From positions 24,793-88,792 of IMG/VR virus record IMGVR_UViG_3300012940_000022: a stretch of 64,000 bases of DNA; one strand, given 5' to 3'. Shown here piece after piece: positions 14,889 to 63,510 of the stretch. The notes below the pieces were generated by a model. That model worked only from the letters and a program-made list of their open reading frames with translations. It did not search any database and was not told the origin of the DNA. The stretch is from a virus. The position numbers and the translations under genes were made by a program. The number at the start of each line of letters is the position of its first letter. Positions within the stretch are counted from its first letter, which is position 1.

Positions 14889-15476
14889 TCAGATACTCTG
14901 CGACGAGTTCTGGTTCGGCGCGTTCGAGGCCTGAGCTGCCGCTCGCCGCCGCAGGAGCCCTCGCCGTTGGACCACCGCCAGATATGTGCGACCAAATGCA
15001 AGCGCGGCTGCTTCGAGTTCTGCTCGGCCCCGACACCCGATAACGCGCGCATCCTCCTCCGCCGTCCATCGCTCCATCACGCGGTTTGCCGTCGCAATGG
15101 TTCGCACGTGTTGTTCCTGATCTCGCGCCGACCGAATTGCCCGATTGCGGAGCACCTGCTCGGGATGCGCCGCAATGTAGCGGCGGCCCGCTGCCCGCAA
15201 TTGCGCTCGATCTCGCTTCTGCGGCGTCTTGGGGGTCGGGCGAGGACAGGTGCGATGGCGGTTGGCGTGCGCTTTCCGGGCAGCAATCAGATTCCCACAG
15301 GCGACGCACGTCACCCAGTAGATCTTGCTGACGAGGCCCTCACGCCGAATGCGCTCCCTCGTAAACCGCACCTGTTGAAACGTGACGCCCATGCGCTCGG
15401 CGAGCGCACGGATAGAAATGCTCGGATCGGACCAGGCGATCTCGGCGATCTGCTCGGCTGAAAGGGGCTTCGTCAT
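14889..15476 (-). CDS. HTH + Zn-finger + Myb/SANT-like DNA-binding protein (paralog A)
   Basis: SIRALAERMGVTFQQV; WVTCVACG...HRTC; WTAEED...FGRTYLAVVQRR. Confidence 0.75.
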   Translation of the reverse strand: MTKPLSAEQIAEIAWSDPSISIRALAERMGVTFQQVRFTRERIRREGLVSKIYWVTCVACGNLIAARKAHANRHRTCPRPTPKTPQKRDRAQLRAAGRRYIAAHPEQVLRNRAIRSARDQEQHVRTIATANRVMERWTAEEDARVIGCRGRAELEAAALAFGRTYLAVVQRRGLLRRRAAAQASNAPNQNSSQSI

Positions 15477-15540
15477 AGTGCGGCACTGTGTTGCCGATTG
15501 AGGCCTCGGCACGGTACTCGACTCACGTGATCACCGCCGA

Positions 15541-16404
15541 TCAGGATTCGCAGCCGATGCCGTCATGGTCGCCGTCGAAGTTATGCGGATCCGGCGGGAG
15601 CACCGTAAATCGACGGTACGGGATATCTCCGCAGTCGAGGTCGCCTGCCTGCGAAACCGGCGGGATGCAGACGCCGGGATACGACGGATCACATGAGCCC
15701 TGGCTGGCGAGTCCCACGCCGGAAGCTGACGGTGCCGCCGGTGCCGGTGCCGGAGTAGGCTGAGCAAGTGGCGTATCAGCCCCGCCGCAGACACTCCAAA
15801 GGCCGCGCCCGGCCGCCTGGGCACTGTCCTGGGCCATCGTCAGATAGTCGACGTACTCGACATCCGGCGGAAAAGTGTCGAGGACGGCATAGCCATCTCG
15901 CACCATCGCGTCCTGCACGAGGCGGTAGCGGCCCTCTCCTTGCTCGACCCAGACCGAGCGCAGCAGGCGGTCGTAGCGATCGGTTTCGCTCACATCTTTG
16001 TCGAGGTAAATGAGTGTCTTGTGCGGAATGATCGACGCCAGGTAATTCGCTGCTTCCTGGCCGTAACACTCAACCGGGGTATTCGGATCGTGGAGTTCCG
16101 GCGTGTCAATGCCGATCAGGCGGACCGTGAAGCGGTCGTGGCCGATCGAGACCTTGATCGTGTCACCATCAACGATCTCTTGGACCCGCGCTTTGCGGAC
16201 GCCGGCCGGTAGCTCGGGGCGAACGAAGCCGGTTTGGTCGATGCTCGGGAGGTCTGGACACTCCCAGCCCTGAAGCTGCGCGTCCTCGCGTGCCAGAAAG
16301 TGGCTACAGCCGTCAGCAGCCGTTGTCGGTGCGCCCGTTTCGAGCGGGGCGACAGCCAGAACGAGTGTGAAAAGTGAGACGAGGCGGAGAATGCGTCGCA
16401 CCAT
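15541..16404 (-). CDS. Secreted thermonuclease (SNase) with Cys-rich excalibur-like C-terminus
   Basis: Signal peptide; DGDT, RLIGIDTPE, DRYDRLLR, GLW; CDPSYPGVCIPP...DGDHDGIGCE. Confidence 0.9.
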   Translation of the reverse strand: MVRRILRLVSLFTLVLAVAPLETGAPTTAADGCSHFLAREDAQLQGWECPDLPSIDQTGFVRPELPAGVRKARVQEIVDGDTIKVSIGHDRFTVRLIGIDTPELHDPNTPVECYGQEAANYLASIIPHKTLIYLDKDVSETDRYDRLLRSVWVEQGEGRYRLVQDAMVRDGYAVLDTFPPDVEYVDYLTMAQDSAQAAGRGLWSVCGGADTPLAQPTPAPAPAAPSASGVGLASQGSCDPSYPGVCIPPVSQAGDLDCGDIPYRRFTVLPPDPHNFDGDHDGIGCES

Positions 16405-16751
16405 CCCATGCTCCCAATGATTGCCGCTACTGCGGTGAAGAGAAGTACTCTTCAATCGCCTTCGTGATTGCGTTCTTGGCCAATTCGTAGGTCGCCGAAG
16501 ATAAATCTGGAATCTCATCGAGAGCGCCGCTCGCACTCCAGAACGATCAATGCCGACCGCTCGTCACAGCGACCTGTCAGGCGCAAGAACGCAGCACCAC
16601 GTGCAGAGCTGTTGAGCTGCATCTCGCCACCTGGTCGTGCGACATGTTCGACGAGAGACCGAGAGCGCCGATGTTGCGGCCACTTTGATCGCCCCCGCGA
16701 CGCAGATTGATCGGAAAGGCCGGAGACTAGTACCTAGCCTGGCCGCTCCGG

Positions 16752-17063
16752 TCAGCTCTCCTCAGCGCTTCCGGGCTTTGTTCGACCGTCTTTCGCATCA
16801 ATTGCGGCGCTTATTGCATTCGTGAAGAGCTCATCGTCCTGCTGACGCGTATCCATCTCGAAAAACCCCGGAGCTAAGGTGAACTTATGTCCGGTTTGCT
16901 CCAATTCGTTGAGTGCCGCCATGTACGTGGCACTTCCAGCGTCAAAAGGCACCTCAGCGTGGCGACTACCATCACTTTCATGAATGACAGCGAAGCCTCG
17001 TAACTGGTCACCAGAACTAAACACACGCAGTCTCTTCAGTTCCACCAAAACTCTGTCTGACAT
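16752..17063 (-). CDS. Hypothetical protein
   Basis: AAGGAG RBS immediately after upstream nuclease stop. Confidence 0.65.
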   Translation of the reverse strand: MSDRVLVELKRLRVFSSGDQLRGFAVIHESDGSRHAEVPFDAGSATYMAALNELEQTGHKFTLAPGFFEMDTRQQDDELFTNAISAAIDAKDGRTKPGSAEES

Positions 17064-17075
17064 CTCCAACTCCTT

Positions 17076-18086
17076 TCAGTCGAGCCAGATGGCTACGCCG
17101 CCGTGGCCCGAGCACATTCCCCGATGATTCAGTGAATAGGAATACGTCCCGTCATTGCACTGCGCGGTTGCGCCGCTGGGGTTGTCGCCCGGACTCGGCA
17201 CCCAGATGCCGTCGACGTTGTAATAGCCGTCGCCGCCGCCACTGTCGGCATACCCACTGCCGTCGTCGGCGGAGCTGCTTCCACTCGAATCGCCGTACGA
17301 GAGTCCCTGCTGCTGATCGACGCCGAAGTAGACCTCGCACGCCCGGCCGTCATAGTTCGGATCGAGATAGGGTTGCGTGTCTGGATGCGCGGCGTAATAG
17401 ACATTGGCTTCGTCAAACGACGCGAATGGGCTGCAATCGGTAATGAGCGCGGCTTCCGGAACTGGCGTGGGCGTCGGCGGGACCGCAGTCGGAACCGGCG
17501 TGTTCGTCGCCTTGGGTTTCGGGGATTCGTGCACGCCGCCGCAGGCGCCCCACAGCCCGGCCTTGTTGTCCTGAGCTTCGGTCTGAAGTTCTTGCAGCCG
17601 GTGGTAGTACTTCGGATTGTCTTTGCGATCGTCGAAGCCGGCGTAGCCCTCGCGGACCAACTTCGTGTTCAGGAGCGCGGCCTTTGCTCCGCCCTTGCCG
17701 GGAATCCAGAGATAGCGGATCGGCCGGTCTTTGCCGTCCAGATTGACGCCGGATTGCTCCAAGTAGACGAGCGTGCCGATCGGCAGCAGTTCTTCGACCC
17801 GGGCCTTCGACTCGGCCCGGTAGCACTCGCCGGGCTCTGGCGCGTCGATGCCGGCGAACAGGATTTCTTGATCGAATCCGTCGATCTCGATGACGATCTT
17901 GTCGCCGTCGCTGTAGTCGGCAATCGTGGCCGCTTCGGCAGACTCCGGCACGCCGTTCGGCCAGGAGGACTTCAGGGCTCCCGGACCGGCCAGTGCCACG
18001 TGTGATGCCAGTGACATCAGCAGCACCAGCAGACCGAACGTTCGCACAACGAACGCACTCTGACCGCGATCTCGCACCCGACTCAT
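17076..18086 (-). CDS. Secreted thermonuclease-like protein with excalibur-like and DUF3761-like C-terminal domains
   Basis: DGDK, GIDAPE, LVREGYA, GLW; DC..F...A...LDPNYDGRACE; ATAQCNDGTYSYS...GMCSGHGGV. Confidence 0.88.
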   Translation of the reverse strand: MSRVRDRGQSAFVVRTFGLLVLLMSLASHVALAGPGALKSSWPNGVPESAEAATIADYSDGDKIVIEIDGFDQEILFAGIDAPEPGECYRAESKARVEELLPIGTLVYLEQSGVNLDGKDRPIRYLWIPGKGGAKAALLNTKLVREGYAGFDDRKDNPKYYHRLQELQTEAQDNKAGLWGACGGVHESPKPKATNTPVPTAVPPTPTPVPEAALITDCSPFASFDEANVYYAAHPDTQPYLDPNYDGRACEVYFGVDQQQGLSYGDSSGSSSADDGSGYADSGGGDGYYNVDGIWVPSPGDNPSGATAQCNDGTYSYSLNHRGMCSGHGGVAIWLD

Positions 18087-18451
18087 ATGCTCCCCCGACT
18101 GCAGCCGCAACTCTCCGGTTCACGGCGCGCGTTAACGACCACGCCCACCGCGAGCGCGGTGGCGTTGATCCCTGGCTGATGGCTATCTGCAACGCTGAGT
18201 GCAATGATCGGGGATAGTCTAGCGAGCGAAGAGAACGCTGCACAGAATGATTAGTCTGGGGATCATGGGGCGTTCAGCGAATACGACGGGGTACTTTGAT
18301 ACCGCTCGCCCGCATTCACTGCGCCAGTTGCCGGGCGAGACCGGCGACCTCTCACCTATCTGAAAGCAGAAACCCACCATTCGCGAAGTTCCCGCTGACC
18401 CTCGCAATGCTCTTCAATGATTTGACGTGCGGCGCCGGGATACTCGCGTTT

Positions 18452-19138
18452 TCAGAATGATCCCTGACGAGCGATCGGCTCGATCAGACCCGGATCGTCG
18501 TTGCCGGCATTGCCGACCCGAGGTGAGACGGGATAGGCCTCGAGCGCGTCGCTGTCAAAGGGTTTGAGCAGTGGCAGCACCGCCTCGGGCTCGGTCAACT
18601 CGCGGTCGAGCCACACCTCTTCATCCTCGGGGTGCAGAATCACCGGCATGCGGTCGTGGATGCCGGCAATCGCTTCGGCCGGTGTGGTGGTGATAATCGC
18701 GTAGGTGATCACCCATTGGTCGGCTTCGTTCCTGAACTCCTCCCAGAGCCCAGCGAAAGCGAAAACGTCTTCATCCTTGAGATGAATGTAATACGGCTGC
18801 TTCTTGCCTTTATCGCCCTGCCACTCGTAATAGCCAGATGCCGGGACAATACAGCGCCGCTTCCTGATCGAATCCTTCCACGTGTTGGTCTCGGTGACGG
18901 TTTCGGCCCTGGCATTGATCGGCGCTTTGTATTTGCCGCCCGGCTTCCACCACGGTTTCTTCAGCCCCCACTCCATGAGGCGAAGCTCGCGCTGCCCGTC
19001 CTTGTTCTCTGCGATCACCGGCAGTTGCTGGCTCGGGGCGAGGTTGTAACCCAACTGAATGTGATCGGCGATCACGCCAACCCTGAACCGTTCGATGATG
19101 CCGGCTTCAGTGCCGGCAATGACGTAGCGTCCACACAT
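18452..19138 (-). CDS. SOS response-associated peptidase (SRAP/HMCES/YedK family)
   Basis: N-terminal MCGRY, YNLAPSQ, INARAET, RCIVPASGYYEW, IHDRMPVIL. Confidence 0.96.
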   Translation of the reverse strand: MCGRYVIAGTEAGIIERFRVGVIADHIQLGYNLAPSQQLPVIAENKDGQRELRLMEWGLKKPWWKPGGKYKAPINARAETVTETNTWKDSIRKRRCIVPASGYYEWQGDKGKKQPYYIHLKDEDVFAFAGLWEEFRNEADQWVITYAIITTTPAEAIAGIHDRMPVILHPEDEEVWLDRELTEPEAVLPLLKPFDSDALEAYPVSPRVGNAGNDDPGLIEPIARQGSF

Positions 19139-19181
19139 GGCGCACTTCCCTCCGCGACAACTCGGATCGTACCTGATTTCC

Positions 19182-19250
19182 CGCCTCGGGTCACTTTTCC
19201 CCCGTCGTCTCCGCGTAATTCTCGAAAACGCCGCATGCCGTGAATAGCAT
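19182..19250 (+). promoter_or_regulatory. Late-promoter half motif and -10 before prohead protease
   Basis: GGT-CACTTTT 19189-19198; TAGCAT 19245-19250. Confidence 0.5.
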
Positions 19251-19286
19251 GCCGCCAACGGCAACCCCGTTGGAGGACCCGGCGTC

Positions 19287-20708
19287 ATGCGCGATCAGCT
19301 CAACCTGGCAACCAGTGCCCGCGTCACCGCGTTCAAAGGCGAGGACCTGCTGGCGATCGCGCGCGAGCGTGCCCCCGACCCGACGGTCTTTGACGAGCGC
19401 GGCGCCTTCTTCTGGCGCGCCGAAATCTCCAATAGCTCGCTCGACTTCTACTTCACGCGCATGTCCGAGAAGACGCTCAAGAACTTCGCCCAGGCGGCCA
19501 CGGACGGCATCTCGTTCCAGGACAGCCACAACTGGGAAAAGCTCGGTTACGGGCAGTCGCTGCGCGGCATGTTCTACAAGGCGATCGAAGACGACGAATA
19601 CGGCATTCCCTTGCATCGGGTCGAGGCCGACTTTTTCACCATTCCCGGCATCGCCATCAACGGCGTGAACACCACCGATTTCATCGACGCGGTCCGCTCC
19701 GGCGTCACCCGCGACGTATCGGTCGGCTTCTACGCCGACGAGACGCGCTGCTCCATCTGCGGGAACGAGCTCTTCCAGGGCTGGTTCGGCGGCTGGTATG
19801 GCGCGTGTGATCACGTGCCCGGCATTGAGTACGGCCTGGTCGATGAGGACGGCAAGCCGCTCATCGGCGAGGACGGCAAGAAGGTCAAGAAGCTGGCGTT
19901 CGCCTGGATCGAGGACGGTCACCTGACCGAAACGAGCCAGGTCTACGACGGCGCCACGCCGAACGCCGCCAACCTCAAAGCCGAATTGATGGCCGCCGCC
20001 GGCGCGCTCGACGACGCGAGCCGCGCCCTGATCGAGCGGCGCTACCGCCGCAGTCTCCCGAGTCCCCGCAGTCAGTTCGCCGTGCCCGGCGAGAAAGGAC
20101 AGCCCATGACCCTCGCCCAGCGCAAACCGGCAGCCAAGCGCACGGAAGAGCCGGCGAAGCCGGTGGTCGAGCCGGAAACCCCAGTCGAAGAGCCGACGAC
20201 TCCCGAACCGGCCGCGCCCGTCAGCGAACCGGAAGAGGAAGAGACCGTCATCCTCGACGACCTCGAAGAGGCGACACCCGAGCCGGAGGCCGACGCCGAG
20301 CCGGCCGACGAAGCCGCGGAGTACGAAGAGATCCGCGCCGTCTACAAGGACCGCGGCATCACCCTCGGCACCAGCCGCAACAAGGCGATCCGCATGCTCG
20401 CCGACAAGGTGATCGAGCAGCGCGATCTCGCGAAAGTCGGACGGATGTTCCGCACCGAGTTGGAGCGCGATGTCGAGGCTTCGCTCGTCCGCGCCAAGGG
20501 GGCGGATGAAACCAAGCTCGCCACCTATCGCAGCCTGTTCAAACGATCGACGGTCGAAGAACTGAAGCAGCTCCGCGCCGACTTCGAAGAGGAAGCGACG
20601 GCCCGGTTCCCGGGCCGTCGCATCACCCGCGACACCGGACCGGCGCCGGAGCACGAACAAGACCCGCAGCCACAAGCGGCTCCGGCGGGAGCCTACCGAG
20701 CGCCGTAA
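19287..20708 (+). CDS. Prohead protease/scaffold fusion
   Basis: DSH, DVSVGF (S78-like catalytic Ser), RCSICG..CDH, ETSQVY; acidic linker and helical scaffold. Confidence 0.85.
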   Translation: MRDQLNLATSARVTAFKGEDLLAIARERAPDPTVFDERGAFFWRAEISNSSLDFYFTRMSEKTLKNFAQAATDGISFQDSHNWEKLGYGQSLRGMFYKAIEDDEYGIPLHRVEADFFTIPGIAINGVNTTDFIDAVRSGVTRDVSVGFYADETRCSICGNELFQGWFGGWYGACDHVPGIEYGLVDEDGKPLIGEDGKKVKKLAFAWIEDGHLTETSQVYDGATPNAANLKAELMAAAGALDDASRALIERRYRRSLPSPRSQFAVPGEKGQPMTLAQRKPAAKRTEEPAKPVVEPETPVEEPTTPEPAAPVSEPEEEETVILDDLEEATPEPEADAEPADEAAEYEEIRAVYKDRGITLGTSRNKAIRMLADKVIEQRDLAKVGRMFRTELERDVEASLVRAKGADETKLATYRSLFKRSTVEELKQLRADFEEEATARFPGRRITRDTGPAPEHEQDPQPQAAPAGAYRAP

Positions 20709-20758: not shown

Positions 20759-21157
20759 ATGGCGAATCCACGCGCAACCGTCCGCTACGACGAGATCGGC
20801 ACGCTCGACGTGACCTTCAAGACGGACAACACGATTACCTACGATCGCACCAAGCCCGGCGGCAGCGACCAGGTCGGACTTGCGGTCACGCTGGCAGCGG
20901 ACGACACCGCCGGTCTGATCGGCGACGGCGAGCAACTGCTCGGCATCTTGCAGCGAGTTGAAGCCGATGGCAAAGCGCTCGTTCGCATTCGCGGTTACGC
21001 CTACGCCAAGGCGGGCACCGGTGCCACATTGACGCTCGGCGGAGGCATTGTCGGCGCGCTGCTCTCGACCGCTGAGGGCTACATCAAGACCGGCACTGGC
21101 CGGGGATTCATCCAGAACAACGACGACACCACGAAGGTGCTCATCTATCTCTTCTAG
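20759..21157 (+). CDS. Capsid decoration/cement protein
   Basis: Small Gly/Thr-rich beta protein between protease and MCP. Confidence 0.7.
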   Translation: MANPRATVRYDEIGTLDVTFKTDNTITYDRTKPGGSDQVGLAVTLAADDTAGLIGDGEQLLGILQRVEADGKALVRIRGYAYAKAGTGATLTLGGGIVGALLSTAEGYIKTGTGRGFIQNNDDTTKVLIYLF

Positions 21158-36890: not shown

Positions 36891-37955
36891 TTATGGATTG
36901 TTCCCCGGAGCCACGACGATGCTGAAAACCTCACGGGTGACCTCGTCATAGTTGAAGATCACGATGAAGGTGCCTGGCGCCTCTCCCATCCACACATCAA
37001 AGTCGGCGTACTCAAGTCGAGGTATGAGCGACTGGCTGTTGTAGACGCGTACGGTTGAAAAGGTCTGAGGGTAGTATTCGTCAACAAGGATCGAATCGGG
37101 AGGGATCAACGCGGCAGCGAGGTCTTCAGCGGTCGAGAACGGAATATTCGGCACTTGATAAGTGAGATTCCAGACATTGCCGTTTATGTACGAAACGATG
37201 AAGCTATAGTCAGTTTGATAGCCATACACTTCAAATCCTGGGAAAGACACGTTTGGATTAGCTGAACCGTGGACTCGCTCCCAATCGGCCCGCGACTGTC
37301 CGATTCCAGATGAATAACCCGACACTCCAGATTCCGGAGCTTCCGTGGGTGTCGGCTCCGGACGTGGAGTCGGAGTCGGTTTAGGTGGAGAGGTCGGTTC
37401 CGGCGTCAATACCGCTGCTGAAATGTGAAGCGTGTGGCAAACATCCCAGAGTCCGCGCCCTTTGATGCGAGCGTCGAGTTCAGCTTTCTCGAGATTATCG
37501 AAATATTTCGGCGAGTCTTGTCCATCATCGAATCCGGCATAGCCGTCGCGAACCATTTTCGTATTGATAAGCAGCGCTTTGGCCCCGTTGGAACCTGGTA
37601 GCCAGACATAGCGAACCCGAAGCGATCCGTATTCATCGGCAGTGCCAGACTGCTCAAGATAAACGATTGTCCCGACCGGGAGTAAATCGGCGAGATATTC
37701 AGTGGATTCCTGAAAGAAGCACTCGTCGGATTCGGGAGCATCAATTCCTGCGAGCAAGACTTGCACAGCCCCATCAGGTGCTTGAACGTCGATTTTGTCG
37801 CCATCAATGATGCCGGACACTGTCGCTGGTTTCGCTGCTGCAGGTACTCCCAAGGGCAAGGCGGCGGGACTAGCACCCGGCGTCGCTTCTTGCGCGAACA
37901 CAACACTCGGCATCGCCAACAGTGCCAGTACGCTCCAAATCAACCAGCGCCGCAT
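36891..37955 (-). CDS. Secreted thermonuclease-like protein with unknown C-terminal domain
   Basis: Signal then QEATPGASPAA; DGDK, GIDAPE, MVRDGYA, GLW; PT linker. Confidence 0.88.
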   Translation of the reverse strand: MRRWLIWSVLALLAMPSVVFAQEATPGASPAALPLGVPAAAKPATVSGIIDGDKIDVQAPDGAVQVLLAGIDAPESDECFFQESTEYLADLLPVGTIVYLEQSGTADEYGSLRVRYVWLPGSNGAKALLINTKMVRDGYAGFDDGQDSPKYFDNLEKAELDARIKGRGLWDVCHTLHISAAVLTPEPTSPPKPTPTPRPEPTPTEAPESGVSGYSSGIGQSRADWERVHGSANPNVSFPGFEVYGYQTDYSFIVSYINGNVWNLTYQVPNIPFSTAEDLAAALIPPDSILVDEYYPQTFSTVRVYNSQSLIPRLEYADFDVWMGEAPGTFIVIFNYDEVTREVFSIVVAPGNNP

Positions 37956-40992: not shown

Positions 40993-41165
40993 GCCGCCAC
41001 CGCCAGTCGGTAGGCATTGCGCAGCTCGTCGGCAGTAGCGCCCTTGATAACGATGCGCTGACCGAATCGGAAGGCGAACGACGTGTAGCCTTCCCAGGTC
41101 TGCGTCACACGCGGCCGCTCACTGCTGCTCCAATCGGCGAAGCGAAGCGCTGCATCGGTCAACAT
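40989..41165 (-). CDS. 58-aa protein paralogous to C-terminal part of 60288-60896 (absent from ORF track)
   Basis: MLTDAALRFADWSSSERPRVTQTWEGYTSFAFRFGQRIVIKGATADELRNAYRLAVAA; ATGA overlap. Confidence 0.8.
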   Translation of the reverse strand: MLTDAALRFADWSSSERPRVTQTWEGYTSFAFRFGQRIVIKGATADELRNAYRLAVAA

Positions 41166-51780: not shown

Positions 51781-52197
51781 ATGAATAGGTCTCGACCGAT
51801 TGTCCAGCTTTGGAAGTGGTTCATTGCCGCGGCTGCGATCGCCTTGGTGATCGTGCTCACGGTACAGCTTGCTGCCGCACAAGAGGTCACAACCGATACC
51901 AGCGAGATCGGCGGCATCCCGACGAACATTCTCATGTGGGGCACCGTCATCGGCTTTCTCGGCTCGCCGTTTATCTCCGCGCTGAATCGCCAGAAGTGGA
52001 GTTCTGAAGTCAAGGCGCTCTCGGCGTTTGTGTGGTGTTTCGTCGGGGCGCTCGGCACGGTGTACTTCAGCGACAATTTCGACGTGCAGAACCTCGCAAC
52101 GACGTTCCTCTTCACCTTCGTGACCGCGATCAGCAGCTACGAGAAATTCTGGAAGCCGACCGGGATCGCCGGCAAGATCGAACGGGCGACCGGCTAG
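51781..52197 (+). CDS. Holin
   Basis: Several TMs; ALNRQKWSSEVKAL...YEKFWKPTGIAGKIERAT is typical of actinophage-type holins. Confidence 0.8.
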   Translation: MNRSRPIVQLWKWFIAAAAIALVIVLTVQLAAAQEVTTDTSEIGGIPTNILMWGTVIGFLGSPFISALNRQKWSSEVKALSAFVWCFVGALGTVYFSDNFDVQNLATTFLFTFVTAISSYEKFWKPTGIAGKIERATG

Positions 52198-52329
52198 CAG
52201 CGGTCATCCATTCGTGCGATCAGCCGATTTTGGTCGAATCTGTACGCCAAAGAGCGCTGGCGATACTCCGTTGGCGCTCTTGTTATGATCCCGGAAAGCA
52301 TGAGATCTTCTTCACGTAGGAAGCAGACA

Positions 52330-53985: not shown

Positions 53986-55182
53986 TCAGCTCATACGACC
54001 GGCCTTTCGCAGGTTGACTCGCCGTCCCATCACTGCGTAGTACGTGCGTCCGAGAAGTAGCGCTATTTCCACCGCCGATTGCTTTGGATGATCAATGATC
54101 CATTGGTCCTCTTCGGCCGACCAAGGCTCATTCGTGTTCCGAGCTTGGTCCTTGGTCTGCTCCTGGGATGTAGTCGTAAATTCGTGAGCTTTGTCGAGAT
54201 CATCAAGCCTCGCTTCGCGCGGCTTCTCGTGCCATTCCCGACGCATACGCTCCTTGTCAGCTTCCCGGAATTCTCTATTTCGCTCGGGATGCGACTGTCT
54301 CCACTTCGCTACATAGGATGTGCTGAGAGAACCGGGGGCGCGATCGGCACGGCGATTGCGGGCACGCTGGCGTTCTCGCTCTGGGATACAAGCGGGATGT
54401 GTCTTATGGGTGAGATTGTTGACGGCAACCGGCTGACCGCACACATCGCAGGACGTCCAGTAGAGTCGGCAAACCCACTGTCCATTTCGGAGCTTTCGCC
54501 GAGATGCAGCGACGGTGAAATACGGGGCGGCTATACGGGTCGCGAGATCAGTTGTTGGCTCGTCATCTGAGGCGTTCAGAATAGCCCGCAGTTGATCATC
54601 AGTGAGTAAGTGGACTTCTCGTTTCTTGCGCCCAGATACCGATTGAAGAGTTGGTTGCGGGTGCGCCGATTCGTCCAATGCGAGATCTTCTTGCCGGACA
54701 GATTTGCGCCGTGCACGTTGTGACAGTGGAACGTCTAGCTGTTTCCTGATTTTATTGCGTTGAGCCTCCACCGCTGTGACTGTACGCCCGAGCGATCGCG
54801 CGACATCGATCGCGGGATCAGCAAGATGCTGGATCATATATGCGCGGTCAATGGCGGACCAGCGCTTGTGCTTCGACCGGGCCTCGGCGGTGCTTTCTAT
54901 TTTTGCGCGATGCGCAGTAGCAACGTTCGCTTTGTTGGACGCAGTTCGGCAGCGAGGGTGTAATTTCTGCCGAGCGTCGCGTGCAGCAAAGAGGCCGCCA
55001 CAATAGAGACACGTTCGCCATTGCAATCGGCAGACGTACCCTTCTGCATAGCGTTTCCGATAGAAGAAAACAACGTGCCGCGGTATGCCTAATGCGGCGG
55101 CCAAGGTGTCATCCGGTGCATCAGATGGCGCCCAGACAATTTGAGCAATCACCTCATCAGAGTATTTCGGTGGTTTCGGCAT
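53986..55182 (-). CDS. Tandem (2x) HTH + Zn-finger + Myb-like protein (paralog B)
   Basis: WRTCLYCG..HPRC, WSAID..LGRTVTAV; WTSCDVCG..HPAC, WSAEED..LGRTYYAV. Confidence 0.8.
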   Translation of the reverse strand: MPKPPKYSDEVIAQIVWAPSDAPDDTLAAALGIPRHVVFFYRKRYAEGYVCRLQWRTCLYCGGLFAARDARQKLHPRCRTASNKANVATAHRAKIESTAEARSKHKRWSAIDRAYMIQHLADPAIDVARSLGRTVTAVEAQRNKIRKQLDVPLSQRARRKSVRQEDLALDESAHPQPTLQSVSGRKKREVHLLTDDQLRAILNASDDEPTTDLATRIAAPYFTVAASRRKLRNGQWVCRLYWTSCDVCGQPVAVNNLTHKTHPACIPERERQRARNRRADRAPGSLSTSYVAKWRQSHPERNREFREADKERMRREWHEKPREARLDDLDKAHEFTTTSQEQTKDQARNTNEPWSAEEDQWIIDHPKQSAVEIALLLGRTYYAVMGRRVNLRKAGRMS

Positions 55183-55579
55183 CGACACGTTCCTGTGTGA
55201 TCCACCACCGCTCAACCGTGTCGAGCAGTGCCACCGTCTCGAGAGACGTCAACGAGTGCAGACGCTGGATCAAATCGTCGGCGTCCGCGATTCCGAACCG
55301 TATGTGCGCCCCATCGAGTTTGATCGCATCTTCGATCGAGACGACAAAGAGGTGTGGCTGGTAATCCATGCCGGGTGTGCCGGCGATGGCTTCGCGCATC
55401 AGCGCCCATTCATTGGGGTCGGCAAAGAACTCGTGCACGCGTAGCCTGGCCTGATTGATCAAGACGTAGTACCGAGTAAGGTCACGCGCGGCCACTTGGC
55501 CCGGAGAATCCCCACGAGCGTGGAGTTCCGGTTCGATGGCCGTACTGCGGAATTGAATCTGTGTCGGACGGTTGCTCAT
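55157..55579 (-). CDS. Possible ribbon-helix-helix DNA-binding protein
   Basis: QIQFR beta strand then two helices (PELHARG, GQVAARDLTRYY). Confidence 0.55.
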   Translation of the reverse strand: MSNRPTQIQFRSTAIEPELHARGDSPGQVAARDLTRYYVLINQARLRVHEFFADPNEWALMREAIAGTPGMDYQPHLFVVSIEDAIKLDGAHIRFGIADADDLIQRLHSLTSLETVALLDTVERWWITQERVDAETTEIL

Positions 55580-55896
55580 TCGATATCGATCCCATACTTG
55601 TCGCTCATTTCAGCAGATAGATAGCGACGAATGACATACACGATGTCACCGCTCTCTTCGGTCATTAGTGCCTCGAAGTCCTGATCATCCTCGGCGAACA
55701 CATCAGCAATGTCGATTGTGGGGATCTCGAAATCAGGCCAGCCAATGGATTTTGCTGCTGTGTACCGATGAGCACCGGTCAGAAGCTGATCTTCGCCCCA
55801 GCGAACCAGCGGAGCTCCGTACCAGCCGCTCGCTTCCATCGCATTGGCGAGCGCTTGGACCTTTGCCAGATTCTCGGGTTCGTGCCAGGTGATCAT
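55576..55896 (-). CDS. Short ParB/Srx N-terminal domain protein
   Basis: KVQALANAMEASGWYGAPLV...LLTGAHRYTAAK. Confidence 0.75.
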   Translation of the reverse strand: MITWHEPENLAKVQALANAMEASGWYGAPLVRWGEDQLLTGAHRYTAAKSIGWPDFEIPTIDIADVFAEDDQDFEALMTEESGDIVYVIRRYLSAEMSDKYGIDIE

Positions 55897-55937
55897 TGTC
55901 GAGACCCTCACTCGGTGTTCGTTCGCCCTATGGCAAT

Positions 55938-55973
55938 CCTATTGTATACCATTGGTATACCATGGTCAATAGG
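55938..55973 (-). promoter_or_regulatory. Sigma-70 promoter with operator repeats
   Basis: TTGACC-17-TACAAT on minus; GTATACCAT twice, 11 bp apart; CCTATTG/CAATAGG flanks. Confidence 0.8.
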
Positions 55974-56040: not shown

Positions 56041-56060
56041 ATTAGAACATTAGTTCTAAT
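56041..56060 (+). promoter_or_regulatory. LexA (Cheo-type) SOS box upstream of dnaE2 operon
   Basis: ATTAGAAC-ATTA-GTTCTAAT; TATCAT -10 just upstream. Confidence 0.85.
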
Positions 56061-56080: not shown

Positions 56081-56314
56081 ATGCCGGGCCTCACCAAACT
56101 CTTCGCCGGACCGATTGAAAAACAGGACCTCGACCGCGCCTGGGCGGACTATGAAGCGGCGCTCGCCGCTGACCCCGATCTCTGTGACGGCGAGGAAGCG
56201 GAGCGCTGGATGAGCAATCCTGCGAACGCGACCGAGCTCGAGGAACTCGCCACGAAGTTCCAAATCAATCGGGTTGCCGGCGATCCGGACGACCTCTCAG
56301 ACATCCCCTTCTGA
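56081..56314 (+). CDS. 77-aa acidic protein with SSB-like C-terminal tail
   Basis: AAAGGGAG RBS; ends GDPDDLSDIPF. Confidence 0.8.
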   Translation: MPGLTKLFAGPIEKQDLDRAWADYEAALAADPDLCDGEEAERWMSNPANATELEELATKFQINRVAGDPDDLSDIPF

Positions 56315-56388
56315 GCTAGCCGCACTCGGTCGCTGACCGGGTGAGTGATTGAAACCTCACATCTCCAGACACGACAAAGGACGCAGCG

Positions 56389-59300
56389 ATGACGAAGGGT
56401 GGGTACGTCGAGCTGCACCTTCATACCTCGTATTCCTTCCTCGATGGTGCCAGCCAGCCGGAAGAGCTTGTGCTCCGCGCCAGGGAGCTTGGCCTTCCGG
56501 CGCTAGCGATTACCGACCATGACGGGCTGTACGGCGCGCTCGAATTCGCGCGGATGTGCCAGGCAGCCGGCATCCAGCCGATCACCGGCGCCGAGATCAC
56601 GCTGATCGACGGCACGCATCTGACCCTCCTCGCGGAGACGCAGGAGGGCTATCGCAATCTCTGCCGACTGCTGACGGAGGCCCATCACACGGTGCGGGCC
56701 GGCGCCGAACCGGTCTGGGGTGATGACGAACCGCCGATCTGGCACACCCTGCCGCTTGATAACGGACGCTGGCGTCACCATTACCGGGAGCCGGAGACCG
56801 CGCCATGGCTCGACCCTGCCCTGCTTCCACGTTACGCCCGCGGGCTGATTGTGCTCACCGGCTGCCGGAACAGTCAGCTCTCTCGGCTTGTCGATGCGCA
56901 TCGCATGCGTGATGCCGCCGCCCTGCTCGAGCAGTACATCGCCTGGTTCGGCCGGGAGAACGTCTTCGTCGAGCTGCAACAGAACTGGGTGTTCGGCGAT
57001 CGTCCCCGGGTGCAACAGTTAGTGCGTCTCGCCAAAGCCGCTGGCGTCGGCTACGTCGCGACCGGCGACGTGCACTATCACCGCCGCGATCGCCATCGCC
57101 TGCAGGATGTGCTCGTGGCGATCCGCCATCGCACCACGCTCGACGGCAGCCATCGCCAGCGGCGGCCAAACGCCGAATTCCACCTTGCCTCGGCCGACGA
57201 GATGCGTCTTCGCTTCGCCGATTATCCCGAGGCCATCGATGCCACACTGGAGATCGCCCGGCGCTGCGCTTCCTTTGACCTCAATACCGACCTCGGCTAT
57301 GTCTTTCCGGATTATCCCGGCCTTGCCGAGGGCGAGACGCCGGACGACGCGCTGCGCCGGCTCTGCACCGCCGCCTTCTCTACCCGCTACCCGGCCGGAT
57401 CACCGCGTTTTCAGGAAGCGACCGAGCGGCTCGAAGAGGAATTGCGACTCATCCGGCAGCACAAGCTCGCCGGTTTCTTCCTGATCCACTACGACTTGCT
57501 GGAACTGGCGCGCGAGGTGGCGGTCGAGATTCGCGGCGCCGCTACCTATCGCGCCAGGGCCTTGCTGCCGCCGGGACGCGGCCGTGGCTCGTCCGTCTCG
57601 TCAATCGTCTGCTACCTGATCGGACTCTCACCGGTCGATCCGCTCGAGCACGGGCTCAAGATCGGGCGCTTTCTCAATGACGGCAGCTCCTCGGTGCCGG
57701 ACATCGATCTCGACTTCCCGCGCGACATCCGCGAGCGACTGCTTGAACGGATTCATGCCGACTATGGCAACCGGGCGGCAATGGTCTGCGCCTTCGCGAC
57801 CTACAAGCTCAAGTCGGCGGTGCGCGATATCGGCAAGGCGCTCGGGATTCCGATCAGCGATCTTGACCACATCGCCAAGGGGGCCGAGCCGCATTCGGCG
57901 ACCGAGCTCGGACGGGAGCTAGAGCGCATCCCGACGTACGCGCAGCGCAAGACCGAGCCGCCCTGGTGCTACCTCGTAGAACTGGCGGAGCAGCTCGCCG
58001 GCCATCCCCGGCACATCACCCAGCATTCCGGCGGCATGATCGTCTCGTCCGGGCCGATCACCGGTATCGTGCCGGTGCAGCCGGCGGCGATGGAAGGGCG
58101 CTTCCTCTGCCAGTGGGATAAGGACTCCTGCGACGATGCCCGCTTCGTCAAGATCGACTTTCTCGCGCTCGGCATGCTCTCCGCCGTCGAAGAATGCATG
58201 GATCTGATCGGCCGCTCCGGAGCGCCCGTGCCCGATCTCAGCCGCATCGATTACGCGGACGAGGCGATCTTCGAGATGATCCGCGCCGGTGACACGCTCG
58301 GCACCTTCCAGATCGAGAGCCGCGCGCAGATCCAGACGACGCTGCGCACGGCACCGGCAACGCTGGCGGACATCGTGGTCCAGGTCGCGATCGTGCGCCC
58401 CGGTCCGGTGGTCGGCGGTGCGACCACGCCGTACATCCAGCGCCGGCGCGATCCCGACTGGCAACCGACCTACGACCATCCGCTCTTGGAGCCGGTCCTC
58501 CGCGATACGCTCGGCGTCGTCGTCTTTCAGGATCAGGTCTTGGAGGTGGCCCAGGCCTTAGCCGGGTTTACCGCGGGTCAGGCTGACTCACTCCGGCGGG
58601 CGATGACCCGCAAGCGCTCGAACGAAGCAATCGAGGCGCATCGCCAGGATTTTTACCGGGGAGCAGACGCGAAGGGGGTCGATCGCCAGACAGCGGAGCT
58701 CGTCTTCGAGAAATTGCGCGGCTTTGCCCAGTACGGCTTTCCGCGCGGACACGCGGCCTCGTTCGGGGTGCTTGCGTACCAATCCTGTTACCTCAAGCGC
58801 TATTACCCGGCGGAGTTTCTCTGCGCGCTGCTCAACAATCAGCCGATGGGTTTTTACCCGACCCACGTGCTCGCGCATGAGGCGCAGCGCCGCAGCATCG
58901 TGCTCCTGCAACCGTCGATCAACACGAGCGAGGTGCGCTCGAGTGTGCCGGGCAAGGGCATGGTCCGGATCGGGCTGGGGCAGGTCAAAGGCCTGAGCGA
59001 CGAGCAGGCGGAGCAGATCGTGCGTGAGCGCGAGGCGCATGGCCGCTACCAATCGCTGGGCGATTTCGTTCACCGCGTGGTGTTGCCGCGTGAGCTCACC
59101 CAACGCATGATCCAGGTCGGCGCGTTTGACGAGTTCGGGCTGTCTCGCCGGGAGTGTGCGTGGCAGCTCGGGCTCTATATCGAGCCGCGTCGCTTCGGCA
59201 CCGAAAAAGGCACGACGAACCGACGGCGCAAGAAGGACCGGATTGCCGGCATGCAACAGCCCCTGCCGTTGCCGGTCGAGCAGGATATGGTGCACCTGCC

Positions 59301-59766
59301 GCCGACAACCGCTTCGGAGCGCATGCACGCGGACTACGAGGTGCTTGGTCTCTCGGTGCGCTATCACCCAATCAGCTTGCTCCGTCACCGGCTCCCTGAT
59401 CATCTCGTTACAGCGCGGACATTGCTCGATCTCCCCGACGGCGCCCGCATCCAGATCGGCGGCATGGTGGTGGTCCGGCAACGGCCCGAAACCGCCAAAG
59501 GCGTCACCTTCCTTTTATTGGAAGATGAAACGGGCCTGAGCAACGCGATCATCTACCCTGCTCTTTACCAGGCTGAGCGATCACTGGTGCGCGGCGAGCC
59601 GATGCTGATGATTACCGGCCGGGTGCAGCGGCAGGCGGATACCATCAACGTCGTGGCGGAGCGGATCGAGCCATTGGCAAGCCATCTGAAACCTGATCCG
59701 TCCGGCAATCGCCTTTCGCTCAAGCCGGTCGAGGAGGTTTCACCAAAGGCGCACAGCTACCGATGA
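56389..59766 (+). CDS. dnaE2: Error-prone DNA polymerase III alpha (DnaE2/ImuC)
   Basis: YVELHLHTSYSFLDGAS, GRGS, PDIDLD, QWDKD, VRQRPETAKG, C-terminal HSYR. Confidence 0.95.
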   Translation: MTKGGYVELHLHTSYSFLDGASQPEELVLRARELGLPALAITDHDGLYGALEFARMCQAAGIQPITGAEITLIDGTHLTLLAETQEGYRNLCRLLTEAHHTVRAGAEPVWGDDEPPIWHTLPLDNGRWRHHYREPETAPWLDPALLPRYARGLIVLTGCRNSQLSRLVDAHRMRDAAALLEQYIAWFGRENVFVELQQNWVFGDRPRVQQLVRLAKAAGVGYVATGDVHYHRRDRHRLQDVLVAIRHRTTLDGSHRQRRPNAEFHLASADEMRLRFADYPEAIDATLEIARRCASFDLNTDLGYVFPDYPGLAEGETPDDALRRLCTAAFSTRYPAGSPRFQEATERLEEELRLIRQHKLAGFFLIHYDLLELAREVAVEIRGAATYRARALLPPGRGRGSSVSSIVCYLIGLSPVDPLEHGLKIGRFLNDGSSSVPDIDLDFPRDIRERLLERIHADYGNRAAMVCAFATYKLKSAVRDIGKALGIPISDLDHIAKGAEPHSATELGRELERIPTYAQRKTEPPWCYLVELAEQLAGHPRHITQHSGGMIVSSGPITGIVPVQPAAMEGRFLCQWDKDSCDDARFVKIDFLALGMLSAVEECMDLIGRSGAPVPDLSRIDYADEAIFEMIRAGDTLGTFQIESRAQIQTTLRTAPATLADIVVQVAIVRPGPVVGGATTPYIQRRRDPDWQPTYDHPLLEPVLRDTLGVVVFQDQVLEVAQALAGFTAGQADSLRRAMTRKRSNEAIEAHRQDFYRGADAKGVDRQTAELVFEKLRGFAQYGFPRGHAASFGVLAYQSCYLKRYYPAEFLCALLNNQPMGFYPTHVLAHEAQRRSIVLLQPSINTSEVRSSVPGKGMVRIGLGQVKGLSDEQAEQIVREREAHGRYQSLGDFVHRVVLPRELTQRMIQVGAFDEFGLSRRECAWQLGLYIEPRRFGTEKGTTNRRRKKDRIAGMQQPLPLPVEQDMVHLPPTTASERMHADYEVLGLSVRYHPISLLRHRLPDHLVTARTLLDLPDGARIQIGGMVVVRQRPETAKGVTFLLLEDETGLSNAIIYPALYQAERSLVRGEPMLMITGRVQRQADTINVVAERIEPLASHLKPDPSGNRLSLKPVEEVSPKAHSYR

Positions 59767-59910: not shown

Positions 59911-60144
59911 CTAGTCTTCGGACTGGTCGCCGCTTCCATTTTCCGCCGACATCAATTCAATCGGCTTCACGTCAAGGGCATTGGCAAGGCGTCGAATCGT
60001 GCTCAGCCGCACCGACTTACCTCGCTCCGCGTCGCTGATCGTCGCCTGACGAACGCCCGCGCGCTCAGCCAGATCCGCCTGCGACAACGCCTGTACCTGA
60101 CGGTGATACTTCAACTTCTCCGGATCCAAATGCATTTCGCTCAT
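59911..60144 (-). CDS. XRE-family HTH regulator
   Basis: LSQADLAERAGVRQATISDAERG...LANALDV. Confidence 0.9.
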   Translation of the reverse strand: MSEMHLDPEKLKYHRQVQALSQADLAERAGVRQATISDAERGKSVRLSTIRRLANALDVKPIELMSAENGSGDQSED

Positions 60145-60148
60145 ATCA

Positions 60149-60211
60149 ATACGTATCGTAGTCCACTTCGCACCGATTGACAAACGTATTATAAACGTAT
60201 AATATACGTAT
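60149..60211. promoter_or_regulatory. Back-to-back promoters with phased ACGTAT operators
   Basis: + TTGACA(60177)-17-TAATAT; minus TTGTCA-17-TACGAT; ACGTAT at 60151, 60184, 60195, 60206. Confidence 0.8.
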
Positions 60212-60287
60212 GTGAGAAATGGAATCCTCACCAGGGATCAGCGCCTAAGGGAGTAGGAACCCGGCGGCACGCAGGACGGAGAACACG

Positions 60288-60896
60288 ATGCAGACCGCGA
60301 CCTACCACAATCCATTTCGCCAGCAGCTGATCGAAATGGGCAAGGCGATCGAAGAAGCTAAGCGGGATCATGCCCAGGCCGAGCTTGGCGTCTTCGCGAT
60401 CGCCCGTGGAGAGCGCATGACGGCGGATGCGAAAGACGCGGCGTACCGAACGCTGAAGCTCTGCCAGGATCGACTCCGCGCCGCCATCGGGCAGTACGAC
60501 GAGACATTCGAGCAATTCCTCGAGTGGGTCACCCCGATCGTAGTCGATGAAGAGGCCGCGATCGCTGACGCCGGCGCCGATGCGGTCGCGACCGCTGAAA
60601 AGATCATCGCTGCGGCTCGCATGGTCAGCGAACGCAATGCCATCGCCGATCGCGCCGTGACGGTCTGGATGTACGACAAAAACCCCGATCTGCCCCACTG
60701 CTGGAACGGCGAGCGCATGACCGCTGCGACCGCCGCTCGGGCTATCGCCGAGCGGAGCGCCGCCGGGAAACCACGCGTGACTCGGACGTGGGAGGGATAC
60801 ACGTCATTCGCCTTCGCCGGCGGTAGCCGGGTTGTCGTCAAGGGCGCCACTGCCGACGAACTCCGCGATGCCTACCTGGCCGCGGTTGCCGCTTAG
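60288..60896 (+). CDS. Early hypothetical protein
   Basis: GGAG RBS; first gene downstream of switch promoter. Confidence 0.75.
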   Translation: MQTATYHNPFRQQLIEMGKAIEEAKRDHAQAELGVFAIARGERMTADAKDAAYRTLKLCQDRLRAAIGQYDETFEQFLEWVTPIVVDEEAAIADAGADAVATAEKIIAAARMVSERNAIADRAVTVWMYDKNPDLPHCWNGERMTAATAARAIAERSAAGKPRVTRTWEGYTSFAFAGGSRVVVKGATADELRDAYLAAVAA

Positions 60897-62214: not shown

Positions 62215-62483
62215 ACCCTTCAGACACTCCCGACTCGATCCTCGCCCGTTTCGCTACAGAATTTAGGAACCCGGCTGGTCAAGAACTGAGAATCACGTTT
62301 GCGGACGGAGCGACTCGAGACGGATCAGTCAGAGGTGGTCCGAATAACTTCGTCATTGTTCATGGCAAACACGCTGAATCAACTACATATCTCCATACCT
62401 GGGACATCACCCGCATCGACTACAGCAACGCCCGCTACCGGGGTGCCGAGCCGCTCTATGAACGGAAGTCCGCCAATGTTTGA
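62211..62483 (+). CDS. Hypothetical protein (Sm-like beta pattern)
   Basis: ATGA overlap; LRITFADGATRDGSV. Confidence 0.6.
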   Translation: MNPSDTPDSILARFATEFRNPAGQELRITFADGATRDGSVRGGPNNFVIVHGKHAESTTYLHTWDITRIDYSNARYRGAEPLYERKSANV

Positions 62484-62757
62484 CCTCTGGACCATGCGAG
62501 ACGGCCGCACCATCCGCGTTGACGATATGACTCATGATCACCTGCGCAACACGATCGCGATGCTCCGGCGCCGACTCGCTGAAATGGATGCGAGTGACAC
62601 ATTAGGGTTTCCGCCGAACGCGCCGTCGTGGGTGATCGATGACTACTTCGCCGGCAAAGACACCATCGAAGGATGGATCGCGCGTCTAGAGGCTGCCCTT
62701 TCTCCCGATCCTGTTTGGGTCAGCCGTGACGACGAGCCGGGCAGAGGCGAGCCATGA
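62476..62757 (+). CDS. Phage hypothetical protein
   Basis: WTMRDGRTIRVDDMTHDHLRNTIAML, a recurrent phage motif. Confidence 0.75.
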   Translation: MFDLWTMRDGRTIRVDDMTHDHLRNTIAMLRRRLAEMDASDTLGFPPNAPSWVIDDYFAGKDTIEGWIARLEAALSPDPVWVSRDDEPGRGEP

Positions 62758-62929
62758 TCACCCGATAGATCATCTTCCGTGATGGCCGCCGAATCTACGC
62801 AACGACTTCGAAACCGCGCTTCGATGTGCAGCTCGCCGACGAACTCGCGCGTGGAGGGGCGATCGATTGGACGACGGAGCTCGTGCCGAGACTACGGCCC
62901 ACTATCTGATATCGCGCTAAACTCATGGT

Positions 62930-63001
62930 CGCGGGATGGAGCAGCGGCAGCTCGTTGGGCTCATAACCCAAAGGTCGATGGTTCGAATCCATCTCCCGCC
63001 A
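62930..63001 (+). tRNA. tRNA-fMet (CAT)
   Basis: Cloverleaf; CAT 62962-62964; three G-C pairs in anticodon stem; C1:C72 mismatch; TTCGAATCC; CCA not encoded. Confidence 0.92.
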
Positions 63002-63078
63002 CCCTCGAAGATAGCCCGCCCAATTGAATTGAACTGGCACTCACTTCAACAGTGTTCCAGCTGTTGAAGCCGAGTTCA

Positions 63079-63510
63079 CTATGCCGCCGTCACCACCTCG
63101 ACGCGCCGCTCCATCTTTGCCCGGCATTCGGCATGCATCAGCTGCCGGCCACTCCGCGTGCAAAACTGCTCTCCGCATTCGAGACAAACCGGGAAGTAGA
63201 CCGGGCACGAATTACGCGGCACGCGGCGTTTCCAGTCGCAGAGATCACAGGCAACCCGGGCGACATGCCGGGACACGAAGCGCGCACCGCAATCCGAGCA
63301 GGTGCGCCAATGCAGCTTTGTTGACGCGAGACCTTGCACTTTTGCACGGTACCGCTGGACGGTGAAGAAATCCGCGCCGATCCGGCCGGCCAGCTCCGCG
63401 GACGATTCATCGGCGCCAGCGTGTACGATCGCGGCTCGCTGCGCGTCGGTCAATGTGCCCATTCGCGGCAATTCACCCGTCTCGAGATACGTCGCCAATT
63501 GTGCCTGCAT
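63079..63510 (-). CDS. HTH + double Zn-finger protein (paralog C)
   Basis: GAGGAG RBS; LTDAQRAAIV..LAGRIGADFFTV; WRTCSDCG; CLECG..HAEC. Confidence 0.78.
   Translation of the reverse strand: MQAQLATYLETGELPRMGTLTDAQRAAIVHAGADESSAELAGRIGADFFTVQRYRAKVQGLASTKLHWRTCSDCGARFVSRHVARVACDLCDWKRRVPRNSCPVYFPVCLECGEQFCTRSGRQLMHAECRAKMERRVEVVTAA

Follow-up and report, generated by a model that had tools for sequence, protein, structure and literature searches.

Dispersed paralogues of an unnamed, mainly phage-borne family of predicted zinc-finger and Myb-like helix-turn-helix proteins, one of them with a LexA-type operator

Three related genes in a temperate phage

The window, as the whole 64,000-nucleotide stretch of DNA analysed here is called, is the final 64 kb of a single 88,792-bp virus record, IMGVR_UViG_3300012940_000022, and three genes dispersed in it, here named A, B and C, encode proteins built on one module: a helix-turn-helix (HTH) domain, a predicted C2HC zinc finger and, in A and B, a linker and a second, Myb-like HTH. 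The window also encodes a capsid protein, a 1655-amino-acid tape measure, a glucosaminidase-type lysin and a DnaE-type polymerase, and the 24.8 kb outside it a tyrosine integrase, RecT, a beta clamp, an exonuclease, a SNF2 helicase, a methylase and two stand-alone HNH proteins; with structural genes and a tyrosine integrase among its contents, the source is therefore a temperate tailed phage. Among 50,697 cultured phage records there was no match to it, either by blastn of the structural region or by tblastn of A, B, C and P0008 (E<=1e-2 to 1e-3).

All three genes are read from the minus strand. Gene A (14889..15476; 195 amino acids; P0001 in protein collections) has one complete module, whose parts, delimited from an AlphaFold model and an alignment, are HTH1 (15327-15476), the C2HC finger (15231-15326), a basic helical-hairpin linker (15081-15230) and the Myb/GcrA-like HTH2 (14922-15080). 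Gene B (53986..55182; 398 amino acids; P0002) has two complete modules, the first at 54703-55182 and the second at 53989-54621. Gene C (63079..63510; 143 amino acids; P0003) encodes an N-terminal helix, an HTH, an inserted C4 finger and a C2HC finger, with the second HTH absent. The starts at 15476, 55182 and 63510, given already in the original prediction, which was made from the letters alone, agree with the gene calls of the protein collections, and its module counts (one in A, two in B, an HTH with two fingers in C) are borne out by the open reading frames (ORFs), BLASTP and a profile search.

Do the modules really resemble one another? By BLASTP A matches B at E 1e-12 in module 1 and, over its whole length, at 1e-11 in module 2, and C matches B at 9e-11 and 3e-7 and A at 5e-6, so that across this range, 1e-12 to 5e-6, the modules do align significantly. 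A hidden Markov model (HMM) of the HTH and finger of the four modules, run against the window and then the complete 88.8-kb genome in all six frames, recovers genes A, B and C only, besides one weak match, and it also recovers the second finger of C (domain E 5e-4). A fourth family copy at 52008-52316 (E 4e-4) was considered and rejected, since the HTH part alone matches there and the frame reads like non-coding sequence. As to details, the finger had been said usually to end in HxxC, and four are indeed CxxC...HxxC, with the inserted, first finger of C being CxxC...CxxC; the C-terminal W(S/T)xEED...GRT..AV..RR pattern that had been pointed out has three occurrences, two of them in B and one in A; and the statement that no nuclease motif is visible holds in Pfam, where no nuclease family matches A, B or C at E<=1.

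A large family with few names

When the profile of the four modules was searched exhaustively against 1.84 billion cluster representatives, as had been proposed with the original prediction, 1157 proteins matched at E<=1e-3, 159 at E<=1e-10 and 9 at E<=1e-30. The census of architectures that follows concerns 150 of the 1157 that were listed, two of which are the window's own B and C, leaving 148. With domain HMMs made from a 66-sequence alignment, the order HTH-finger-Myb is seen in 86 of these 148 and HTH-finger in 12; the census is partly circular because 65 of the 148 also served to build those HMMs. A finger is present in 113, and the other class comprises 35 fingerless HTH/Myb repeat arrays with up to nine repeats. 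The double module of B and the HTH-finger-finger order of C each recur once among the 148, in P0004 and P0051 respectively. Ten positions are invariant or at least 90% conserved in the 66 aligned members (numbering of A): C57, C60, H74, C77, W137, D142, L161, R163, R171 and L175.

The sources are metagenome assemblies and the names are 'hypothetical protein' or, once, 'CsgD family'. No Pfam gathering threshold is reached by A, B or C, and NCBIfam, its RsfA model included, has no relevant model for them or for the 66 aligned members. Among those 66, Pfam gives weak HTH_23 matches in 15 and a weak Myb match in one (PF00249, E 0.0078, below threshold), and no family that covers them; A, B and C have no PF00249 match at E<=1. 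PHROG matches of the three are partial, to 'HTH DNA binding protein', 'transcriptional regulator' and, for the fingers of C, part of an 'HNH endonuclease'. A word-indexed homology search with A found A itself only, the ESM Atlas returned only unnamed viral clusters for it, and a literature search found no paper on this architecture. The idea of an uncharacterised multi-domain phage family of DNA-binding type is thus supported: the family is large and mostly metagenomic, its profiles and folds are of DNA-binding type, and it has no curated Pfam or NCBIfam model and no informative names.

In 401 sampled Chloroflexota genomes there are four with a family match at E<=1e-5, only two of which cover the HTH-finger part, and this sporadic occurrence fits carriage on mobile elements. 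One provirus (L001) has a finger-Myb relative between Ant and Xis, in its early region.

Are A, B and C recent duplicates of each other? A tree of 114 HTH+finger units, quickly made and weakly resolved, needs four label changes for the four modules of the window, the same number as with shuffled labels, and the modules do not cluster on it. Instead, A groups with P0006, P0005 and P0112 (support 97), its closest relatives being P0006 (57%) and P0005 (47%); the second module of B groups with P0012, P0050 and P0106 (support 84); and C is placed with P0051 (support 92), in a clade whose members are short and lack the second HTH, the orthologues of C being P0051, likewise of two-finger form, P0055, P0074 and L021. 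With positions so scattered, each paralogue thus represents a subfamily with orthologues elsewhere, and, as far as such a tree can be read, the modules are old paralogues with closer relatives elsewhere than in this genome.

Two related helix-turn-helix domains around a zinc knuckle

Sub-profiles of the N-terminal HTH and of the C-terminal Myb-like domain match one another (hhalign probability 97%, E 9.5e-11), and therefore the module consists of two homologous repeats split by a finger and a linker. The original prediction had named an 'HTH' and a 'Myb-like' domain as separate things; both stand as domains of DNA-binding type, and what changes is that they are repeats of one kind. Against PDB sequences the C-terminal repeat of the family profile matches v-Myb (E 2.9e-4, the best), B-Myb and c-Myb R3, in keeping with the Myb/SANT resemblance named in the original prediction, and the N-terminal repeat matches a CRISPR-repeat-binding HTH and the mariner HTHs of SETMAR/Mos1 (E 5e-3 to 2e-2). 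Distant tandem-repeat relatives do pass Pfam thresholds, for Myb_DNA-binding (P0145, 2e-41), GcrA (8e-27) and TrcR, so by transitivity the repeat is tied to the Myb/GcrA/TrcR superfamily.

The AlphaFold model of A, from 66 aligned sequences, has a mean predicted local distance difference test score (pLDDT) of 91.5. Helices 7-15, 22-29 and 33-46 form a first three-helix bundle; strands 53-56 and 63-66 make a beta-hairpin finger around the CxxC; a basic helical hairpin spans 86-127; and helices 139-147, 151-161 and 165-184 form the second bundle, which the near-invariant W137 precedes. A three-helix bundle that starts at a conserved Trp, with a profile match to v-Myb, is what a Myb/SANT-type HTH looks like. 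The four conserved ligands of the finger lie on the hairpin and the loop that follows it, which is the arrangement of a C2HC zinc knuckle, with metal binding predicted. All four structured segments of A are basic, with isoelectric points of 10.3-11.9. In the model of C the HTH and the first hairpin are good.

A structural comparison with Myb had been suggested. Foldseek with the model of A found no PDB match at E<=1e-3, and an exhaustive structural aligner placed A beside R2R3 MYB and Reb1 at a middling Z of 6.1, with Myb repeats overall at Z 5.5-6.1. The aligner's scores, though middling, agree in direction: the Tc3 HTH scored Z 7.0, the bipartite Tc3 domain Z 6.8, with an alignment of 89 residues that takes in both HTHs, and the GcrA DNA-binding domain Z 6.5 (root-mean-square deviation, rmsd, 1.9 A over 45 residues, 20% identity); since PF07750, the GcrA family, matches neither A, B or C nor any of the 66 members, that similarity is at the level of domain fold only. 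In a viral structure library the sole significant match is a 'DNA binding protein' of Gordonia phage Patos (E 8.5e-6, 215 aligned columns), the weaker ones being actinophage proteins that are unnamed or called 'HTH DNA binding'.

A LexA-type operator in front of gene C

The only promoter-like site upstream of gene C is a sigma-70-like one on the minus strand at 63544..63572 (TTCACA, 17 nt, TATTCT; 9/12 in a consensus scan), and within its spacer, overlapping the -10, is the LexA-type operator AGAAC-N4-GTTCT (63549..63562). Such exact palindromes number two in the 88.8 kb, with 0.02 expected. The second, at 56044..56057, is in the divergent gap that the DnaE operon and the ParB-like operon of gene B have in common, 24 nt upstream of the ATG at 56081 and just past a promoter-like -10. 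A third GAAC-N4-GTTC core (20891-20902 of the genome) is within apparent coding sequence and lacks the A/T flanks, and was treated as chance.

Is the palindrome one that a likely host would recognise? In two Chloroflexota genomes reached via relatives of the family (G246 and G001) lexA was located, and two of the three lexA-like loci have the motif just upstream, AGAAC-N4-GTTCT in G246 and AGAAC-N4-GTTCC in G001, one of these boxes being directly 3' of a TTGACA...TAGAAT promoter. Dehalococcoides LexA reportedly uses a Gram-positive-type box. In L021 the gene orthologous to C, whose product is 49% identical, is preceded by AGAAC-TGAT-GTTCT, as far from the ATG as the box of C is, and in an ungapped alignment of the two upstream regions the box plus -10 island is identical at 18 of 21 positions with the flanks diverged. 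The claim that one copy has a LexA box has consequently held up well, for the box at 63549-63562 matches the palindrome found upstream of Chloroflexota lexA, overlaps the promoter and is conserved in the orthologue. No Peptidase_S24 self-cleaving repressor was found among the 113 phage ORFs scanned.

Beside these results stand some observations on the same regions. The operon that the second palindrome precedes (56081-59766) has a small 77-amino-acid ORF and then a 1125-amino-acid PolIII alpha of DnaE type, and the identity of its palindrome to that of gene C suggests, as far as sequence goes, a phage replication polymerase under SOS control. Upstream of gene C is a perfect 10-nt tandem, CGATAGGATA x2.3, at 63633-63655. 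On the plus strand a tRNA-Met (CAT) is at 62929-63004, 75 nt from the end of gene C, and the integrase is at the opposite end of the contig; if the genome is circularly permuted, the tRNA gene may mark the attachment region.

The operon of gene B and the surroundings of gene A

Gene B is the last gene of a leftward operon in which a ParB-like protein is followed by a 140-amino-acid ORF and then B. The first gene (55576..55911, minus strand) encodes 111 amino acids with a putative ParB-like N-terminal domain (phrog_8071, E 3.8e-6; phrog_723, E 5.7e-4; no Pfam match at E<=1). The 140-amino-acid ORF (55157..55579, minus strand) is directly upstream of B and overlaps its start by 26 nt. Its product has no Pfam match at E<=1, no PHROG match at E<=0.01 and no PDB sequence match at E<=10; an ESM Atlas model is poor (pLDDT 0.41) and gave no usable match; and the 25 proteins of its family at E<=1e-3, the window's own included, have no informative names. 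It had been labelled ribbon-helix-helix (RHH), a label that is not supported, as no RHH family or structure matches in Pfam, PHROG or the PDB, so that of the supposed ParB/RHH operon the ParB-like part has support at PHROG level only and the RHH part has none.

The pairing of B with its 140-amino-acid neighbour recurs elsewhere. On a contig of a Dehalococcoidia metagenome-assembled genome (L002), the gene immediately before a full-length member of the family (profile E 4e-56) encodes a homologue of the 140-amino-acid protein (32% over 136 amino acids, E 1.4e-10), and the neighbours of this pair include homologues of two genes of the phage, SRAP and the SNase gene next to A. What precedes the pair in L002 was tried as a further ParB-like gene and is not one (E 5.7).

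The best promoter-like site for the operon of ParB-like protein, 140-amino-acid protein and B is on the minus strand at 55941..55969 (TTGACC, 17 nt, TACAAT; 10/12), and two direct repeats, GTATACCAT x2 at 55944-55963, overlap it. GC content at third codon positions (GC3) is 0.55-0.60 in the B cassette vs 0.75-0.85 in the structural genes. In L002 a 21-bp near-palindrome with GTAATAC/GTATTAC (6611-6631) comes after a TTGACA. It is possible that the repeats near the promoters of such family-gene operons are operators, the comparison between them being post hoc; a genomic enrichment of GTATMCNAT (5 vs 1.15 expected) is likewise post hoc and was not used as evidence, because the pattern was derived from those same sites.

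Gene A is within a leftward cluster that has secreted-type nucleases and an SRAP gene. The latter, an SOS-response-associated peptidase gene at 18452-19288 (Pfam E 1e-70), heads the cluster, and L002 has a homologue. Three separate SNase-domain genes, at 15541-16536, 17076-18110 and 36891-37955, are an unusual number for one phage; in one of them DUF3761 accompanies the SNase domain, and in the first the N-terminal segment is hydrophobic and resembles a signal. A DUF6602 protein (12445-13251; Pfam E 4e-24), in a stretch of low GC (0.51), lies where the cluster of gene A has its far end.

What might the proteins do?

The reading that we favour, with moderate confidence, is that A, B and C are paralogues belonging to an unnamed family of DNA-binding proteins with zinc fingers, carried mainly by phages, that they are sequence-specific regulators of the temperate phage programme and that C is under LexA control. 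Homology among the modules, their architecture and predicted fold, an operator kept in an orthologue and a gene pair kept in another genome are what this builds on, and from them we infer binding of zinc and DNA by the proteins, binding of LexA at the operator and a regulatory role. In such a scheme each module, with its homeodomain/Myb-like HTH, its C2HC knuckle on a beta-hairpin, its basic helical hairpin and its homologous Myb/GcrA-like HTH, would bind a bipartite DNA site through two recognition helices, as in Tc3 and paired domains and in Myb R2R3, with the zinc knuckle and linker setting the spacing between the two HTHs. C would be repressed by the host's LexA and made on DNA damage, to act as an early switch factor at induction; B, with its two modules, would be made from an operon together with the ParB-like protein and the conserved 140-amino-acid partner; and the three paralogues would be specialised.

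Several points weigh against it. No repeated candidate target site or dispersed family of operator-like repeats was found in the genome. Conservation of the LexA box concerns two of two C-type loci only, and that of the pair of B with its 140-amino-acid partner two of two loci only. As to the fold, the inserted finger of the C model is poor (pLDDT <50), the PDB search with A by Foldseek was empty at the threshold given above, and fold Z scores of 5-7 are middling and may reflect a common arrangement only. The circularity of the census counts here too. It could be a phage repressor, and not LexA, that has the palindrome as its operator, and a Chloroflexota host is itself inferred from the best relative and from the motif upstream of lexA; the true host may differ.

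How do other explanations fare? As its second alternative the original prediction had offered nuclease-less derivatives of homing endonucleases, and this has minor support only. A, B and C would then be DNA-targeting modules of homing-endonuclease origin, either selfish remnants or site-recognition subunits for free-standing HNH enzymes of the phage, two stand-alone examples of which it does encode. The low GC3 of the B cassette is as expected of an acquired island, L005 has a fusion of a Myb-only relative with a nuclease of EndoVII/HNH type, P0025 matches HNH_3 below threshold (E 6.2e-4), and the N-terminus of P0029 aligns with the phage's own HNH_3 protein over the conserved C/N/P/H motif (E 1e-3). 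However, these two are the only ones of the 148 listed relatives with a weak HNH_3-like head, none being found in the other 146, in 63 scanned at E<=1e-7 or in the 66 members of the alignment. The fingers of C match positions 171-246 of phrog_1271, 'HNH endonuclease' (E 9.5e-6), but the PHROG matches of A, B and C are partial and to non-catalytic parts, with no HNH catalytic domain. None of A, B and C adjoins an HNH gene in this phage. Moreover, diverged orthologues elsewhere keep the LexA box or the partner gene, which suggests a function under selection. We regard an endonuclease origin of this kind as improbable.

A role in genome maintenance, with B and perhaps the wider family serving as a centromere- or site-binding adaptor with the ParB-like and 140-amino-acid proteins in partition, bridging or prophage maintenance, has some appeal from the operon: it is headed by the ParB-like gene and ended by B, short direct repeats overlap its promoter, the 140-amino-acid partner is conserved beside a family gene, and two modules, hence four HTHs, suit bridging or binding at multiple sites. 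However, a phage with an integrase has no evident need for partition of plasmid type, the ParB-like assignment is at PHROG level only, no ParA was seen among the ORFs scanned, and the gene upstream of the conserved pair in L002 is, as said, not ParB-like; this makes the proposal a very unlikely one. That C is an SOS-induced antirepressor or recombination directionality factor, working by protein contacts with the phage repressor or the integrase and not as a DNA-binding regulator, would go with its LexA-type box, with the lack of an S24 self-cleaving repressor among the 113 ORFs, with the LexA-controlled antirepressors known in other temperate phages and, if the genome is circularly permuted, with a distance of ~2.5 kb to the integrase near tRNA-Met, but C retains the HTH and fingers of the family, which point to DNA binding, it has no similarity to known antirepressor or excisionase families and no terminal overlap shows a circular contig, so the idea has little probability.

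The preferred reading, sequence-specific regulators with C under LexA, can be taken further than we would defend with any confidence. In this doubtful extension the C-type proteins (HTH plus zinc finger, ~105-145 amino acids) would be a new class of LexA-gated prophage switch proteins in Chloroflexota-type temperate phages that lack a self-cleaving CI. Release of LexA from the promoter operator would be the sole sensing of damage, the C-type protein would then bind phage DNA and set off the lytic programme along with the LexA-controlled DnaE operon, and A and B would be further tiers of the cascade, B in a complex with its 140-amino-acid partner.

Relation to known systems

The known expansion of Myb factors in phages means that the family is not a new category. 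Iyer et al. (2021, PMC7824862) describe an expansion of Myb-type HTH transcription factors, akin to firmicute RsfA-like factors, among jumbo phages resembling Bacillus phage G. These are like A, B and C in being phage-encoded, multi-copy, three-helix Myb-type proteins proposed to be specific transcription factors. The present family differs in the C2HC knuckle and basic helical hairpin that part its two related HTHs and in having no RsfA/NCBIfam match, and A, B and C come from a mid-sized temperate phage and not a jumbo phage.

Other likenesses are at the level of domains. Tc1/mariner transposases (Tc3, PDB 1tc3 and 1u78; Mos1/SETMAR) also have two small three-helix HTHs and a linker, whereas the present family lacks a transposase catalytic domain and has a zinc knuckle and long helical hairpin in place of the short linker; the relative placement of the two HTHs differs too, with an rmsd of 13.8 A between Tc3 and A when both domains are aligned. 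GcrA of Caulobacter (PDB 5yiu; PF07750) is among the closest single-domain folds and, by reading of an alignment, its LG-R-T..AV..RR turn and recognition-helix pattern is similar, but A, B and C have no PF07750 match and no GcrA C-terminal domain. GcrA is not known to have a zinc finger or second HTH. The eukaryotic Myb R2R3/SANT repeats (PF00249) have the same three-helix form and the conserved Trp followed by acidic residues; however, only the first Trp of the Myb Trp triad is conserved in the 66 aligned members, and the repeats of the family are split by finger and linker where those of Myb are in tandem. Actinophage proteins, of Gordonia phage Patos (A0A9E7U3A4) and of the Mycobacterium phages DS6A and Doug, are of similar size and likewise uncharacterised. 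The likeness of the Patos protein to A, at 21% identity, is one of structure over the whole length and is invisible to tblastn from A, B, C and P0008.

So where is the interest? Phage Myb/HTH regulators are known, and two related HTHs split by a C2HC knuckle and a basic hairpin have neither a curated family nor a studied member. The family is common in metagenomes, and naming it would annotate many 'hypothetical' phage proteins; the 140-amino-acid partner defines a second unnamed family. The biology of phages in Chloroflexota-type hosts has hardly been studied, and the conserved LexA-type operator of the C subfamily offers a testable way into how prophages are induced there. Should the modules bind bipartite sites, the variation in their make-up (one copy, two, HTH-only, finger-only) would be a natural modular design for DNA recognition.

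Other features of the record

There is no terminal overlap in the whole 88.8-kb record to indicate a circular contig. The 140-amino-acid protein is also recorded, in identical form, on a contig of 94,339 bp, longer than the 88,792-bp record, and so the latter may have been trimmed or may cover only part of the phage or prophage region.

The window has a number of repeats. About nine tandem 69-nt (23-amino-acid) repeats are within the tape-measure gene at 33914-34605, with more and shorter ones downstream to ~35270. At 40014-40063 is a perfect 50-bp palindrome with 25-nt arms and no spacer, between converging or diverging ORFs. Inverted 148-nt arms that are 71% complementary, at 40993-41140 and 60745-60892 and thus separated by 19.6 kb, are probably two diverged paralogous gene segments in opposite orientation.

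A cluster of regulators at 5999-9166 has a sigma-70 region 4/LuxR-type HTH protein (5999-6397), an ORF weakly like a response-regulator receiver (6582-6989) and a 583-amino-acid protein with a GerE-type HTH at its N-terminus (7415-9166). At the 5' end of, or just upstream of, a Cro/CI-type HTH_3 gene (59911-60231) is the tandem repeat AAACGTATAAT x2.7 (60182-60211), possibly a candidate operator array of the immunity region.

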